From the IMG/VR virus record IMGVR_UViG_3300036945_000745: 64,000 bases of DNA, one strand, 5' to 3'. Shown piece after piece: positions 17,964 to 23,710 of the stretch (the first letter of the stretch is position 1; each line of letters starts with the position of its first letter). The DNA comes from a virus (lineage: Duplodnaviria; Heunggongvirae; Uroviricota; Caudoviricetes). The notes below the pieces were generated by a model. The model searched no databases and was not told the DNA's origin. It saw only the letters and a program-made list of their open reading frames with translations. The translations under genes and the position numbers were made by a program.

Positions 17964-18034
17964 TTACCCGAGCAGGATTCGAACCTACCCTAACTGCACC
18001 AAAAACAGTTGTGCTACCGCTACACCATCAGGCA
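17964..18034 (-). tRNA. tRNA-Gln (UUG)
   Basis: Cloverleaf UGCCUGA...UCGGGUA; anticodon loop UUUUGGU; T-loop UUCGAAU. Confidence 0.75.
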
Positions 18035-18115
18035 AAATTCTCAAGCATTCTACTCCCCGCAATACGGAATTGTATCTAACTTAGCCCATCGTTGGCGGTA
18101 TGGGTACTTGAGTTG

Positions 18116-18187
18116 AGCGAGTATTCGGACTCGAACCGAAATCTCCGACTTGGAAGGCCGGAACACTAACCATTGTGCTATACTCGC
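18116..18187 (-). tRNA. tRNA-Gly (UCC)
   Basis: GCGAGUA acceptor; anticodon loop CUUCCAA; T-arm UUCGG-UUCGAGU-CCGAA. Confidence 0.85.
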
Positions 18188-18243
18188 ATTTAGTGGATGA
18201 ACAACATCTATCGTTCTTGCGGCTTCCCACTAAAGCCCATTTG

Positions 18244-18316
18244 AGCGAAAGACCGGGCTCGAACCGGCTACCCTCACCTTGGCAAGGTGATGCTCTACCA
18301 AATGAGCTACTTTCGC
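18244..18316 (-). tRNA. tRNA-Gly (GCC)
   Basis: GCGAAAG acceptor; anticodon loop UUGCCAA; T-loop UUCGAGC. Confidence 0.85.
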
Positions 18317-18708
18317 TTGTGACCCCTACCATTCTTTCTAGCGGATTCAGCCATTTTCTTTTTACCTTCGGCTGAAACATTTCTACTAGCGAATGTTGGA
18401 GTTTGTGAATGGCAATTAGGACAAAGTATTCTTAAATTATCATAAGTATTATTTGTTCTATCACCATCAATATGGTCTACATGCATACTAATTTCATGTC
18501 CCAACCACTCTGTGATTCCACAATCCTCACATTTATTTCCTCTAATTCGTTTAAGATAGATTGCCATATTATGATGCCAAACACTACCCTTTACAAATCT
18601 TTGTTTTACAGAGTACTCACCCTGACATTTGTTTGAACAATACTTACCATTTTTTTGAGATGGCATATAATCAAACTCTTTGTCACAATTTATACAATTA
18701 CCTTTCAT
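18307..18708 (-). CDS. HNH homing-type endonuclease
   Basis: HVDHIDGDRTNNTYDNLRILCPNCHSQ (HNH plus zinc knuckle); lies inside the tRNA array. Confidence 0.7.
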   Translation of the reverse strand: MKGNCINCDKEFDYMPSQKNGKYCSNKCQGEYSVKQRFVKGSVWHHNMAIYLKRIRGNKCEDCGITEWLGHEISMHVDHIDGDRTNNTYDNLRILCPNCHSQTPTFASRNVSAEGKKKMAESARKNGRGHKRK

Positions 18709-18766
18709 AGTTTTTTTCTTTTATATAAATATTAGAATACTTAAAAAAGATAAACTATTCTAACTA

Positions 18767-18843
18767 TGGTGGACCAGATAGGGCTCGAACCTATGACCTA
18801 CGCATTATGAGTGCGGCGCTCTAACCGACTGAGCTACAAGTCC
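18767..18843 (-). tRNA. tRNA-Met or tRNA-Ile2 (CAU), CCA encoded
   Basis: GGACUUG acceptor; loop CUCAUAA; 3' ACCA encoded. Confidence 0.8.
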
Positions 18844-18895
18844 AATTATCGTTTAATCTAACGATAAAATCTAATATCGTTTATTTCAACGATAG

Positions 18896-18969
18896 TGGAG
18901 ATAGAGGGATTCGAACCCACGACCCTCTACGTGCAAGGCAGATGCTCTAGCCAACTGAGCTATATCCCC
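18896..18969 (-). tRNA. tRNA-Ala (UGC)
   Basis: GGGGAUA acceptor with the G3:U70 alanine determinant; loop CUUGCAC. Confidence 0.8.
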
Positions 18970-19081
18970 ATTAATGTAATGTCTGTGCGGTTTGTTTCGA
19001 ATCCACTCCTTTGTACGAGTTTCAAAAGTTTCCATTTCATTCTTAGCATCTGTTCCGCTATTCTTTCGAATCATTACATTG

Positions 19082-19166
19082 TACCTCGGGCCAGACTCGA
19101 ACTGGCACGAACCTTTCGGTTCAAAGGATTTTAAGTCCTTCGTGGCTACCATTACACCACCGAGGC
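19082..19166 (-). tRNA. tRNA-Leu (UAA), type II
   Basis: GCCUCGG acceptor; anticodon arm AAGGA-CUUAAAA-UCCUU; long variable arm. Confidence 0.8.
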
Positions 19167-19169
19167 AAC

Positions 19170-19607
19170 TTATAATATGTAAAGTTTAACTTTATGAAAC
19201 TTAGTTTGTTTATCTTTCGGATTGATTAAAATATCAATTTTCTTTCTCCACCTACTATGCATCAAATCTCTAACTACATATACACCACTTAGTTTTCCAA
19301 TTCCGGTAACTCTTACCTTATCTCCAAATCTAAGTTTCTTTTTTAAATCTCTACTCACAGCTATTACCCTGTGCTTTTTAGGATTTGTTTTACTTAACCT
19401 AAATCCACTAGCCGTTATGGTTGGTGAACTATCGGTTTCTGATTCACTTACAGTATAGGTTGTTGCCGTTACTATAAGTGCATTTTGTTTCTTTACAACA
19501 ACTTCCTCTTTTTCCTTTTCAACCTCAAACTTTCTACCATCAAATTTACTAACACTTGCTGGCATCATTACAAAGATACAAAATAAAGTTCTGATTAATA
19601 TGCTCAT
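19170..19607 (-). CDS. secreted 3D-domain (MltA/YuiC-like) protein
   Basis: Signal peptide; C-terminal IAVSRDLKK-LRFGDKVRV...GVYVVRDLMHSRWRKKIDI fits the 3D-domain pattern. Confidence 0.45.
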   Translation of the reverse strand: MSILIRTLFCIFVMMPASVSKFDGRKFEVEKEKEEVVVKKQNALIVTATTYTVSESETDSSPTITASGFRLSKTNPKKHRVIAVSRDLKKKLRFGDKVRVTGIGKLSGVYVVRDLMHSRWRKKIDILINPKDKQTKFHKVKLYIL

Positions 19608-19625
19608 ACGCTTTTCTTTTGTTAG

Positions 19626-19699
19626 TGATTCGGATAGGATTCGAACCTATGACCTACTGCTTAGAAGGCAGTTGCTCTATCCAACTGAGCTACCGAACC
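19626..19699 (-). tRNA. tRNA-Arg (UCU)
   Basis: Anticodon arm ACUGC-CUUCUAA-GCAGU. Confidence 0.85.
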
Positions 19700-19704
19700 A
19701 TATG

Positions 19705-21496: not shown

Positions 21497-21502
21497 TTAT
21501 TG

Positions 21503-21576
21503 TGAACCCGAATGGACTCGAACCATTGACTCCCTCATTAAAAGTGAGGTGCTCTAACCAACTGAGCTACGGATTC
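21503..21576 (-). tRNA. tRNA-Lys (UUU)
   Basis: Anticodon arm CCUCA-CUUUUAA-UGAGG. Confidence 0.85.
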
Positions 21577-21581
21577 AATTG

Positions 21582-21654
21582 TGGGACCTAATGGAATCGA
21601 ACCATTTCCTTTGGATTTTCAGTCCAACGTACGCACCAGCTATACGAAAGCCCC
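21582..21654 (-). tRNA. tRNA-Phe (GAA)
   Basis: Anticodon arm UUGGA-CUGAAAA-UCCAA. Confidence 0.8.
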
Positions 21655-21660
21655 AATTGG

Positions 21661-21740
21661 TGGGAGTAGACGGACTCGAACCGCCGAACCCGAAGGAGAG
21701 CATTTACAGTGCCCCGCAATTGCCGCTATGCGATACTCCC
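21661..21740 (-). tRNA. tRNA-Tyr (GUA), type II
   Basis: GGGAGUA/UACUCCC acceptor; loop CUGUAAA; long variable arm. Confidence 0.85.
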
Positions 21741-21808
21741 AATTTCCAATTTTGTTATCACCATTTCCCCTCTAAACGAGCGGCGTGTTCCGGATTGGTA
21801 ACCGTTAG

Positions 21809-21882
21809 TAGGAGATATAGGATTCGAACCTATGACCCTTTGGATGTAAACCAAATGCTCTAACCAACTGAGCTAATCTTCT
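21809..21882 (-). tRNA. tRNA-Val (UAC)
   Basis: Anticodon arm UUUGG-UUUACAU-CCAAA. Confidence 0.8.
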
Positions 21883-21885
21883 ATT

Positions 21886-21960
21886 TGGCGGGGGAAGATG
21901 GATTCGAACCAACAACCTTTGAATTAACAGTTCACTGCTCTACCGTTGAGCTATACCCCC
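21886..21960 (-). tRNA. tRNA-Asn (GUU), CCA encoded
   Basis: ACUGUUAAU anticodon region; 3' GCCA. Confidence 0.8.
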
Positions 21961-21994
21961 AAAACAAAAAACCCCTAACTTTGTGAGTTAGAGG
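21961..21994 (-). terminator. intrinsic terminator abutting the 5' end of tRNA-Asn
   Basis: Minus-strand CCUCUAAC-UCACAAA-GUUAGGGG hairpin followed by UUUUUUGUUUU. Confidence 0.5.
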
Positions 21995-23462
21995 TTTAAA
22001 TATTCTTATAAAATTTTTACACTTTATCCTAATATGATGTCCTCTAACTTTGTACTAATATAATCCACTTTGCCTAAATTCAAGACTGCCGGATTTGCTA
22101 TCGTACTAAACATACCATTCCCTGTCCACTCATTTCTTTGCGGTTGCAGGTTACAAATTGTATGTTGCGTTAAAGTTTTCATCGTTAATATATATCTAAT
22201 TATTTTAATTTATTCATTTTTTTAAAAAAAGAGTTTTGGAAGGCGGAACTCTTAATATTGTACTTCTATCTGAACCGGCAATATTTTATCGTGTCTTATT
22301 GCGTTTTTGTTGAAAACCCTTCCGAAAAACAGCTACCCTTACTTACTTTTTAGTTTATGCTTTTAGGTCATTTAAACTAAGTTGCCTTATTAGCCAAGCA
22401 CAATCTTAAATGTGGACCACGAGAATCTTAATTGAGCGGTGAAAGGTGCTGCCCCCCTCCTCCTATCTGGAATGATAGGCGTGCTACTGTTACACTAACA
22501 CCGCTTATAAAAAAAGGATGAGAATACTCCTTTTGGCGAACCAGCTTTAGAAAGATTATTTGATTCCTTCCGTTTCCACACCCTTTTGAGGTGTACCAAT
22601 TCAATGTGGGTTAGTAATGCCAACCACTCATAGAGTTTCAAACTACTCTCTTCCTACTTATTTTCTTCAAGCCTCGCAGCCTGATTAGTTCTTGCGGAAT
22701 TAGAAACCTTTCAAAAGAATCACAGACCTCTTGCGGAGGTATCGTGGCAGGGAACAACTCCCTACTATGTACACACCTTTCATCTGAAACTGGTAAACAC
22801 TTTTGCTTAATTTGATTTATAAGTTTGCACTTCATACGGCAAATTGAGTTTTGGTTTGTAGATGGATTCGAGTAGTGGTTTACCACCAGCTCCGTTATCT
22901 TTTGAACAACAGAATACTATACTACTCAATGTGTTATCCCTAACACCATACATCAAGTCATCTTCAATAGAAGGGGTTGGTGCCCCACTCTAAAGGATAG
23001 TAACGCCACCACGCGTACACAGTCTTATCTTACGTCCTTTCGGATAGCTTGATTCTCAAGACCACTTTGGTATTGAATCACGCAATGATAAGGAGAGATT
23101 AAGTCCTTACTTCTCGCAATAATTCTATGAGTTATTCTTATTGATGTTCCCATCTCAACTGAACAATCTACGTTTGCCCAGTCATTTCGGCTCTTCGATG
23201 ATAGTGTTACCCCCATCTACAAAGTCAAAATGATATCTCACTTGCCTACTCAAGCTTATCTCCCTTACGGGGGAGTAGCCGCAGTTACATTAACCAATGT
23301 ACCCACTTTATCCTACTTTCGTAGTTTATTTCACGACCATAGGCGGCCGTTGTTACACTATGTAGAACGAATCTACTATGTGTAATCTTTTCAGTATTTT
23401 AAAGAACATTTTTGAAGTTGAATACCGAGTATCTTTCATTACCTATAAGTTTCAAACTTATT

Positions 23463-23503
23463 ATAAAGATACGAAAAGTTTTTCAAACTTCCTAATTTAT
23501 TTT
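23463..23503 (-). promoter_or_regulatory. RNA-gene-class promoter repeat, reading into the ORF-free region
   Basis: Plus-strand ataaagatacgaaaagtttttcaaacttcctaatttatttt. Confidence 0.4.
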
Positions 23504-23583
23504 ACTTTTTTTGTTGAACATTTTCGGCTATCCTGCTAATGTGTGTTTAGACTATACTGCCTTCCTACTTCTGAACAACTTTA

Positions 23584-23622
23584 CAAATATACGAAAACAT
23601 TTTCACATTTCCTAATTTATTT
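23584..23622 (-). promoter_or_regulatory. RNA-gene-class promoter repeat, reading into the ORF-free region
   Basis: Plus-strand caaatatacgaaaacattttcacatttcctaatttattt. Confidence 0.45.
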
Positions 23623-23638
23623 GTAAATATTTTTTTAG

Positions 23639-23710
23639 TTGCGGATGAAGGATTCGAACCTCCGACCTTATGGTTATGAGCCACACGAGCTACCACTGCT
23701 CTAATCCGCG
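23639..23710 (-). tRNA. initiator tRNA-fMet (CAU)
   Basis: C1xA72 mismatch, A11:U24 pair, loop CUCAUAA, GG/CC at the base of the anticodon stem: all bacterial initiator hallmarks. Confidence 0.7.

Follow-up and report, generated by a model that had tools for sequence, protein, structure and literature searches.

Genes of the tRNA island

The virus record IMGVR_UViG_3300036945_000745 of IMG/VR includes a 64,000-nucleotide stretch of DNA, referred to here as the window, in which an array of tRNA genes lies in an island together with a transfer-messenger RNA (tmRNA), a GOLLD RNA and putative RNA-repair genes. The window is AT-rich (32% GC) and 96 of its 99 open reading frames (ORFs) lie on one strand; all island features given below are on the minus strand. 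ARAGORN, run on the whole window, identified 25 tRNA genes, one for tRNA-Ser(UGA) at 13186-13272 and 24 between 17963 and 23710. Rfam family RF00005, at its gathering score of 29 bits, returned the identical 25 with scores of 31.8 to 74.4 bits; 24 of them score 49 to 74, and tRNA-Cys scores 31.8. U33, a purine at position 37 and a canonical GTTCRA-type T loop are present in all 25. Together with a 26th tRNA described below, these genes make up a wobble-minimal set for complete decoding with almost no redundancy, if superwobble by U34 and a lysidine-modified tRNA are assumed.

A previous, sequence-only reading of this DNA had claimed at least 24 canonical tRNAs, all on the minus strand and together covering all 20 amino acids. 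Both programs agree with that inventory and its coordinates, and they reproduce its 22 anticodons, its second CAU and its Ser-UGA; ARAGORN rejected none of the cloverleafs and left the anticodons unchanged. That reading overlooked tRNA-Leu(UAG) at 20571-20646 and the 26th tRNA, a tRNA(CAU) at 20888-20958, as well as the tmRNA (23804-24211) and the GOLLD RNA (22515-22929) in its own interval. Where it counted three tRNAs with an encoded CCA there are four, and U34, which it ascribed to most of the tRNAs, is found in 12 of the 25 genes, or about half.

In the direction of transcription, the island begins with a P-loop kinase, the tmRNA, an initiator tRNA, a short unannotated stretch, GOLLD, a tRNA-Gly-like element and a small ORF. 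A terminator-like hairpin, 14 tRNAs (Asn to Leu-UAG), an RNaseH_like protein and a second sub-array of ten tRNAs follow. Past the array are another terminator-like hairpin, a 218-amino-acid protein, an HAD_SAK_2 protein, a metallophosphoesterase, an AAA_33 kinase and an RNA ligase, with tRNA-Ser(UGA) about 1 kb further on and thus split from the array by the RNA-repair genes.

The initiator-type tRNA(CAU), which has no encoded CCA, lies at 23638-23710 (64 bits in Rfam). The first sub-array consists of tRNA-Asn(GUU) at 21886-21960, with CCA encoded; Val(UAC) at 21808-21882; Tyr(GUA) at 21658-21740, with CCA encoded and a long variable arm of the bacterial type; Phe(GAA) at 21581-21654; Lys(UUU) at 21502-21576; Pro(UGG) at 21420-21496; Ile(GAU) at 21340-21414; Trp(CCA) at 21178-21249; Arg(ACG) at 21101-21173; Cys(GCA) at 21025-21095; the 26th tRNA; His(GUG) at 20744-20820, with CCA encoded; Ser(GCU) at 20655-20741, with a long variable arm; and Leu(UAG). 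In the second sub-array are Glu(UUC) at 19953-20027, Thr(UGU) at 19782-19855, Asp(GUC) at 19704-19778, Arg(UCU) at 19625-19699 (74.4 bits), Leu(UAA) at 19081-19166, Ala(UGC) at 18895-18969, a tRNA(CAU) at 18767-18843 with CCA encoded, Gly(GCC) at 18243-18316, Gly(UCC) at 18115-18187 and, as the last gene of the array, Gln(UUG) at 17963-18034. This sub-array is interrupted by a 145-amino-acid ORF (19170-19607), which matches only phage families (phrog_21574, E 6e-20) and no Pfam family, and by an HNH endonuclease ORF (18307-18708; PF13392, PF01844) whose stop codon falls within tRNA-Gly(GCC).

Several identity marks can be read directly, including G3:U70 in tRNA-Ala, U73 in tRNA-Cys and the long variable arms of tRNA-Ser, tRNA-Leu(UAA) and tRNA-Tyr. 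The G-1 reported earlier for tRNA-His is also present, as encoded base 20820 opposite discriminator C73. Spacers between tRNAs in the first sub-array are as short as 2-8 nt. Longer inter-tRNA spacers of 55-111 nt, at 18035-18114, 18188-18242, 18970-19080, 19856-19952, 21250-21339 and 21741-21807, carry inverted repeats such as TTTAGTGG...CCACTAAA and AATGTAATG...CATTACATT; these could be processing signals or small RNAs. We took ORFs that overlap tRNAs, such as those at 18886-19152 and 21591-21863, to be spurious.

Decoding capacity and its conservation

The 80 minus-strand coding sequences (CDSs) of the window contain 16,459 codons, with a third-position GC content (GC3) of 0.23. Each four-codon box has one U34 tRNA, with ACG for CGN, and each two-codon half-box has one tRNA; the set comprises 8 family-box, 13 half-box and 4 AUN tRNAs, 25 in all, plus an extra Gly-GCC. 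Watson-Crick reading by cognate tRNAs covers 48% of the codons, conservative wobble covers 85%, and four-way wobble of U34 in family boxes covers 97.1%. AUA, which makes up 2.9% of codons, needs Ile-CAU with lysidine, and Arg-ACG requires A34-to-inosine editing to read CGU, CGC and CGA. The sole codon without a reader is CGG, which occurs once in the 16,459. We considered CGG avoidance as strong proof of co-adaptation and set it aside; in the relatives (93,310 codons) the CGG/CGA ratio is 0.11, compared to 0.14-0.25 for other family boxes, which is a modest depletion.

Assignment of the three CAU tRNAs decides how the AUN box is read. In a survey of 234 bacterial genomes, A11:U24 and G12:C23 were complete discriminators for initiator tRNAs, and Met and fMet tRNAs usually had C3:G70, whereas A3 or G3 with T70 or C70 excluded both and marked tRNA-Ile(CAU), where C4:G69 is frequent (PMC1635315). 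The acceptor stem of the tRNA at 23638-23710, CGCGGAT/ATCCGCA, includes C1xA72, G2:C71 and C3:G70, and its D stem, GAGC/GCTC, includes both A11:U24 and G12:C23; the C1xA72 and A11:U24 that had been put forward as its initiator signature are thus read directly in the sequence. Its anticodon stem has two of the three classical G:C pairs, G30:C40 and G31:C39, but U29:A41 rather than R:Y; the full GGG/CCC stem is missing in 15% of bacterial fMet genes (PMC1635315). At 1:72 the initiators of relatives show C:A, A:A, C:U, U:U or a weak U:A pair.

The tRNA(CAU) at 18767-18843, called Met by ARAGORN, has A3:U70 and C4:G69, with U5.G68 in place of C5:G68; at 3:70, the tRNAs in the corresponding syntenic position of relatives show A:U or G:C. 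By the published rule (PMC1635315) it is probably tRNA-Ile2, which would carry lysidine and read AUA. Thus, of the sequence-only account of the CAU tRNAs the dedicated initiator stands, and the Met label of this second gene is probably wrong. Its homologs are consistently labelled tRNA-Met in GenBank; we did not count these labels against Ile2, as they usually come from callers that consider only the anticodon. The 26th tRNA, at 20888-20958, has U1:A72, G2:C71, C3:G70 and A73. Its reduced D arm permits no A11:U24, position 11 being U in all close homologs, and position 3:70 in the homologs is mostly C:G with some U.G. It is likely to be the elongator tRNA-Met, a function deduced from these pairs in a molecule with an atypical D arm. 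The window would then most likely hold a four-tRNA AUN set of initiator, elongator Met, Ile-GAU and Ile-CAU, which is the bacterial and plastid solution for this box (PMC3413147). Covariation of 1:72 between the Ile-GAU and CAU classes was also tried as an identity test, was not decisive, and was replaced by the 3:70 and 4:69 discriminators.

Related loci were collected from IMG/VR. The RNaseH_like protein as query found 22 at 54-78% identity, and the RNA ligase matched 157 stretches, the best 80 of the 157 at 63-83% identity; in total there are more than 100, and many of the ligase-centred loci also carry large tRNA sets. The order of tRNA genes is the same in related arrays, and many related loci cover all 20 amino acids within the 20 kb fetched. 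An anticodon survey covered 24 distinct related arrays, none with fewer than 22 tRNAs. Every core anticodon occurs in 18 to 24 of them, further anticodons are uncommon (Gly-GCC in 7, Lys-CUU in 1 and Pro-AGG in 1), and C34 isoacceptors are essentially absent. Because the core anticodons and their order are kept with hardly any extra isoacceptors, selection appears to act on completeness and not on particular codons. The explanation that we favor, with moderate confidence, is that the array would serve as a complete replacement pool, sustaining protein synthesis by the phage upon loss or cleavage of host tRNAs.

The main rival is codon-usage compensation, in which an AT-rich phage supplies isoacceptors for A/U-ending codons that its host under-provides. 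Consistent with this, GC3 is low and A/U-ending codons dominate the phage CDSs, and the single tRNA beyond the minimal set, Gly-GCC, fits the most used Gly codon, GGU (relative synonymous codon usage 2.0). However, the set is unselective, in that rarely used boxes are also served (CUN at 1.7% and CGN at 1.0% of codons). NNU is preferred in Y-ending half-boxes, where G34 wobble reads it as in any bacterium, and C34 is absent since U34 covers both purines, which reflects parsimony rather than bias. Wobble parsimony also explains the U34 anticodons, found in every box that one tRNA can serve, better than the decoding against the host that had been suggested for them. In addition, the likely hosts, which are freshwater or marine Bacteroidota by inference and not by identification, are often AT-rich too. 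We regard compensation as rather unlikely. Conservation of the minimal set instead favors a complete replacement pool over a codon top-up as the reason why big phages hoard tRNAs, and the array provides a clean natural example of a virus that keeps the smallest set of tRNAs able to read the code, with order and content conserved across an uncultured clade.

RNAs and proteins of the island

The 26th tRNA scores 24.4 bits against RF00005 (E 0.21), below the gathering score, and is not called by ARAGORN. Its minimum free energy fold has acceptor, anticodon (loop CUCAUAA) and T arms, with a T loop of TTCGAAC. A near-identical ortholog in one related locus (L028, 589-661) differs by two compensated acceptor-stem pairs, covariation is seen in 8 of 10 anticodon-arm and T-arm pairs of the family, and in relatives a tRNA(CAU) fills the same slot between Cys and His. 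The only match of this tRNA among GenBank phages is 83.6% over 61 nt, at 403848-403908 of LR756502.1, a 642-kb uncultured huge phage. tRNA-Leu(UAG), 76 nt long with 49.4 bits, has a short variable arm and A73. Because the short-arm form recurs in relatives with compensatory changes in 16 of 20 pairs and an invariant A73, this gene is by comparative evidence a real, conserved, class-I-like Leu tRNA. tRNA-Cys, with a short D loop, has the weakest Rfam score of the 25, 31.8 against the threshold of 29 bits.

The 66-nt spacer between tRNA-Cys and the 26th tRNA (20959-21024) holds a T-arm-like sequence, GTGGTTCGATTCCAC. In relatives the CAU tRNA follows within a few nucleotides of Cys, and because of this adjacency the spacer is probably the remnant of a decayed tRNA copy.

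Such a remnant, the low scores of Cys and the 26th tRNA, the short-arm Leu and the HNH endonuclease ORF inside the array could all be expected if the array were a selfish or decaying passenger, that is, a mobile tRNA cassette spread by HNH, kept without benefit and including several pseudogenes. Against this, order and anticodons are conserved across relatives whose ligases are only 63-83% identical, and compensatory changes keep the stems even of the atypical tRNAs, with identity elements intact. We give the passenger explanation very little credence. The atypical Leu-UAG, the Met tRNA with its reduced D arm and the tRNA-Gly-like element described next are candidates for nuclease-evading or non-translational tRNAs.

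The conserved 3' domain of GOLLD RNA at 22515-22929 matches RF02032 with 292.2 bits (E 1.6e-82, model positions 1-416; gathering score 150 bits), and GOLLD occupies the same syntenic place in all 7 relatives checked (260-307 bits). The whole RNA probably starts near 23445, because a variant promoter-like box is found at about 23455-23500; the transcript would then be about 930 nt long, with its 5' half outside the Rfam model. The best matches of the region are to uncultured phages, LR756502.1 at 434648-435031 (642 kb) and LR745206.1 at 420259-420672 (635 kb). Matches of the atypical CAU tRNA and of GOLLD in these two records thus indicate that much larger phages share parts of the RNA island. 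The uncultured jumbo-phage clade to which the window belongs may be a source of the "lake-derived" GOLLD RNAs.

About 10 nt past the U-run that ends GOLLD lies a tRNA-Gly(UCC)-like element (22434-22504), recognized from its sequence and from a family of similar elements in relatives. It has no RF00005 match even at E<=5. The copy in the window has a non-canonical 8-nt loop, CATTCCAG; within the family the anticodon loop is either contracted, CGUCCAG with G33, or an 8-nt loop, CAUUCCAG. Family members include L002 4218-4288 and 4293-4364, L009 8211-8284 and 8288-8359, and L008 4655 and 4941. Their acceptor and D arms are invariant and the anticodon stem covaries, with covariation in 9 of 19 pairs; the subgroup that includes the window has a degenerate T arm. 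The element is probably not a decoding tRNA, and candidate roles are a processing signal for the GOLLD 3' end, a decoy, or a non-translational carrier.

These features raise the possibility of a module centered on GOLLD, with the tRNAs and the tRNA-like element as clients or cargo that the GOLLD nanocage stores, protects or delivers. In the window, as in all 7 relatives checked, GOLLD stands between initiator and array, and the conserved tRNA-like element comes directly after it. Published work describes GOLLD as a 14-mer cage that is frequently located close to tRNA islands; env-38 is preceded by a Met-tRNA, and some GOLLD linker regions contain tRNAs (PMC12286853). Linkage by itself is no proof of interaction, however; many phages have large tRNA arrays without GOLLD, and the array has promoter-like boxes of its own. 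We consider such a module quite improbable.

The tmRNA at 23804-24211 was found by ARAGORN and by RF00023 (108.5 bits over model positions 1-374, where 47 is the gathering score), and it precedes the initiator in many relatives. Its predicted tag, AVELSTMTFEDAMSFVGADYAVAA, ends in ...YAVAA, a hydrophobic ...AA tail. Unusually long tags of 23-26 amino acids, with the consensus ..ELSTMTFEDAMAFVGADYAVAA, are found in relatives L007, L009, L012, L013, L016, L017, L021, L022, L023 and L032, the peptide being conserved across them. The tag is short in L010 and L014 (GEYNYAIAA or GVNNYALAA); one phage clade therefore contains two tmRNA types.

A promoter-like box, TTTCNGTATATTTGTA, occurs 6 times in the window compared to 0.87 expected, and 4 of the 6 are inside the island. 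It contains TAnnTTTG, the flavobacterial sigmaA -7 consensus of Bacteroidota (PMC9723704). The box upstream of the tmRNA (24230-24245) reads TTTCTGTATATTTGTA, with TAnnTTTG inside. Exact matches lie upstream of the initiator (23753-23768) and upstream of tRNA-Glu and the second sub-array (20064-20079). Another box, with 1 mismatch (23582-23597), stands before an unannotated stretch of about 70 nt, ahead of the GOLLD box. The ends of that stretch, at 23505-23581, are imperfectly complementary (GTTGTTCA...TGTTCAAC), and it may represent a small RNA located after the initiator tRNA and before GOLLD. A hairpin scan found a terminator-like hairpin with a T run at 21969-21997, before tRNA-Asn. The array seems to be closed by a likely intrinsic terminator at 17921-17953, recognized by eye, with CCTCACA...TGTGGGG, T7 and a 12-nt loop that is larger than the hairpin scan allows.

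Among the proteins of the island, the RNaseH_like protein (20105-20578; PF04308, E 2.2e-18) overlaps tRNA-Leu(UAG) by 8 nt, and tRNA-Leu(UAG) is directly upstream of it in 10 of 13 related arrays examined. This position suggests a role for PF04308 (RNaseH_like / DUF458) in tRNA or RNA metabolism. The P-loop kinase adjoining the tmRNA upstream (24265-24999) is AAA_33 or zeta-toxin-like (PF13671, E 1.2e-7; PF06414, E 2.9e-7). Past the array, the 218-amino-acid ORF (17236-17892) is followed by a protein (16673-17236) with the HAD domain of "Swiss Army Knife" RNA-repair proteins (HAD_SAK_2; PF18143, E 2e-22). The metallophosphoesterase (16014-16667; PF00149, E 1.3e-4) is a candidate end-healing enzyme for 2',3'-cyclic-phosphate or 3'-phosphate ends, and the small AAA_33 P-loop kinase (15407-15823; PF13671, E 2e-12) is a candidate polynucleotide 5'-kinase. 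The RNA ligase (14256-15401) has an N-terminal OB domain of the Naegleria gruberi type (PF21189) and a PF09414 match (E 2.8e-14); PDB entries 5cot/6vt3 (NgrRnl) match at E 4e-15 in the OB domain only. PDB searches with the kinase and the phosphoesterase were uninformative, the phosphoesterase matching 1xm7 weakly.

Phage origin, host and proposed role

The window appears to be part of an uncultured jumbo phage, probably with a Bacteroidota host and a genome about 250-290 kb long. The 50,697 GenBank phage records include neither a close nor a cultured relative, the RNA ligase being less than 30% identical to all of them, and DNA matches to these records do not extend beyond tRNA and GOLLD segments. 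The nearest are to such segments of the uncultured huge phages LR745206, LR756502 and LR756501 (635-735 kb) and to tRNAs of Cellulophaga, crAss-like and Bacteroides phages. Uncultured jumbo-phage contigs that reach about 290 kb show the same order of tmRNA, initiator, GOLLD, array and RNA-repair genes.

A bacterial or megaplasmid origin was also considered, with the island resembling the GOLLD-containing arrays of Mycobacterium. No capsid, portal or terminase gene was recognized among the window proteins scanned, and bacterial genomes do hold GOLLD-containing tRNA arrays (PMC6582537; also Morgado 2020, as cited in PMC12286853). Yet more than 100 related loci are on IMG/VR viral contigs of up to about 290 kb, and nearly all ORFs of the window lie on one strand. 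Some of its proteins belong to families known only from PHROG, and one, in which PG_binding_1 and GH19 domains were recognized, is endolysin-like. At the DNA level the window best matches huge uncultured, Cellulophaga, crAss-like and Bacteroides phages. These observations make a non-viral origin highly unlikely.

The Bacteroidota host is deduced from four features: the TAnnTTTG promoter boxes, the rarity of Shine-Dalgarno (SD) cores, the short tmRNA tags of relatives, and the best tRNA matches, which are to crAss-like, Cellulophaga and Bacteroides phages. The tags GEYNYAIAA and GVNNYALAA, of the ..NYALAA type, we take to be those of Bacteroidota. SD-like cores precede just 7 of the 80 CDSs, and SD sequences are lacking in Bacteroidetes (PMC6847099). 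A search of genome contigs with the epimerase of the window gave only matches of 31-34% identity in unrelated phyla.

If the array is a replacement pool, its genes would have Bacteroidota-type promoters of their own and yield polycistronic transcripts. Processing of these would fall to RNase P, RNase Z and the CCA-adding enzyme of the host; host TilS, TadA and other enzymes would modify the tRNAs, and host synthetases would charge them. The phage could in this way keep translating during the long infection of a jumbo phage, even as synthesis of host tRNAs ceases and the existing ones decay or fall to tRNA-targeting defense nucleases. Cleaved tRNAs would be mended by the neighboring ligase, kinase and phosphatase, and ribosomes that still stall would be released by the tmRNA. 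A non-specific DNA/RNA endonuclease encoded at 32838-33437 is in line with this proposal. Where retrons or anticodon nucleases deplete host tRNAs, those of a phage can take their place (PMC11555353, PMC10264068), and in T4 the tRNA-Lys cleaved by PrrC is repaired by kinase and ligase (PMC10264068). Degradation of the host translational machinery late in infection has been proposed to drive tRNA acquisition (Yang et al. 2021, as cited in PMC11025619).

Some points weigh against the replacement pool. Four-way reading by U34 is an assumption, and conservative wobble leaves 12% of codons to host tRNAs, namely the NNY codons in seven family boxes with a single U34 tRNA. The terminator-like hairpin directly upstream of tRNA-Asn leaves the first sub-array with no promoter assigned to it. 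Finally, the end-healing candidates beside the array (AAA_33 kinases, metallophosphoesterase, HAD_SAK_2) have only generic domain matches, on which the kinase and phosphatase assignments depend, and the ligase may act on other RNAs.

The array had been called self-sufficient and placed at the extreme of translational autonomy, on the strength of a full elongator set plus an initiator. The amino-acid complement and the dedicated initiator hold, but autonomy is overstated. A Pfam scan of approximately 60 proteins from the 64-kb window, which represents part of a genome probably about 250-290 kb long, detected neither aminoacyl-tRNA synthetases nor translation factors, and no CCA-adding enzyme, TilS or SmpB; ribosomal proteins of the autonomous-virus toolkit are likewise missing from these proteins. 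CCA is encoded only by the tRNA(CAU) at 18767 and by the His, Tyr and Asn tRNAs, leaving 22 of 26 without it, and host modification is needed.

Published phages carry up to 67 tRNAs and up to 15 synthetases (PMC7162821), and Xanthomonas phage XacN1 has 56 tRNAs for all 20 amino acids (PMC5852040). These huge phages (Al-Shayeb et al. 2020, PMC7162821) and XacN1 likewise have clustered tRNAs for all 20 amino acids, tmRNAs and tRNA-repair ligases. In contrast, the window has 26 tRNA genes in a wobble-minimal set, with no synthetase or translation factor found in its 64 kb; with no translation protein genes in view, it is a mid-range phage and not an extreme one. A parallel in size and logic is provided by organellar minimal sets, with U34 in each family box, ACG for CGN, fMet, Met, Ile-GAU and Ile-CAU, and lysidine for AUA. 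Plastids use superwobble and the four-tRNA AUN box (PMC3413147), and the apicoplast, the smallest known translation system, has 25 tRNA isotypes (PMC12069591). Unlike in organelles, the phage set would stand beside a full host pool as a back-up or replacement, and superwobble is here an assumption.

The combination of phage tRNAs with an RNA ligase and a candidate end-healing kinase and phosphatase resembles phage T4. T4 carries 8 tRNAs. Its tRNAs and repair enzymes are tied to host tRNA cleavage (PMC10264068). Whereas T4 has a bifunctional Pnkp and Rnl1, the window encodes an NgrRnl-type ligase with an OB domain and separate small kinase and phosphatase proteins. GOLLD beside tRNA islands has also been described (RF02032, PMC12286853, PMC6582537), likewise in phage context and downstream of a Met-type tRNA, as in env-38. 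The island differs from those in its fixed order of tmRNA, initiator, GOLLD, tRNA-Gly-like element and array within a jumbo-phage clade. Large phage tRNA sets, phage tmRNAs, tRNA-repair ligases and GOLLD by tRNA islands are thus already published (PMC7162821, PMC5852040, PMC12286853), and the island does not overturn current views. What is specific here is the wobble-minimal match, the fixed island order in an apparently undescribed clade, the conserved atypical tRNAs and the tRNA-Gly-like element after GOLLD.

The clade also resembles the freshwater Bacteroidetes jumbo phages that carry bS21 (PMC9723584), which are 293-331 kb long, compared to at most about 290 kb for the relatives, with a GC content of 31-33.7%, compared to 32%, and up to 25 tRNAs. 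A link to these phages could not be established; none of 6 IMG/VR sample numbers of the relatives appears in the supplements of PMC9723584 and no bS21 gene was seen in the window.

GOLLD, a cage of solved structure and unassigned function, is fixed between initiator and array and accompanied by tmRNA and RNA-repair genes, which narrows the search for its role. A bolder reading, which we hold to be unlikely, is that the island is a take-over module. Host tRNAs would be eliminated by the phage or by host defense, and phage synthesis would run on its own minimal pool of 25 species; structurally deviant members (short-arm Leu-UAG, reduced-D-arm Met, and the initiator with U29:A41) would evade nucleases, and the GOLLD cage and tRNA-like element would physically help to make, protect or deliver tRNAs. 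If true, this would give GOLLD its first function, and the virus would run a near-orthogonal minimal decoding system.

Several genes elsewhere in the window have other putative functions. On the minus strand, an S-adenosylmethionine lyase-family protein (PF23780, 11803-12552) and an S-adenosylmethionine (AdoMet)-decarboxylase-like protein (PF02675, 32390-32779) are candidates for anti-restriction or polyamine-related functions. A 407-amino-acid protein of the thymidylate-synthase family, with an insertion, lies at 46201-47424 (minus strand). Downstream, the cluster at 50850-63295 (minus strand) includes a cytidylyltransferase, a GHMP kinase, an APS-kinase-like P-loop kinase, an HAD phosphatase, three glycosyltransferases, a hexapeptide acyltransferase and an NAD-dependent epimerase/dehydratase. 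The genes between 46201 and 63295 resemble a nucleotide-sugar pathway, which might serve DNA hypermodification or a change of the host surface.

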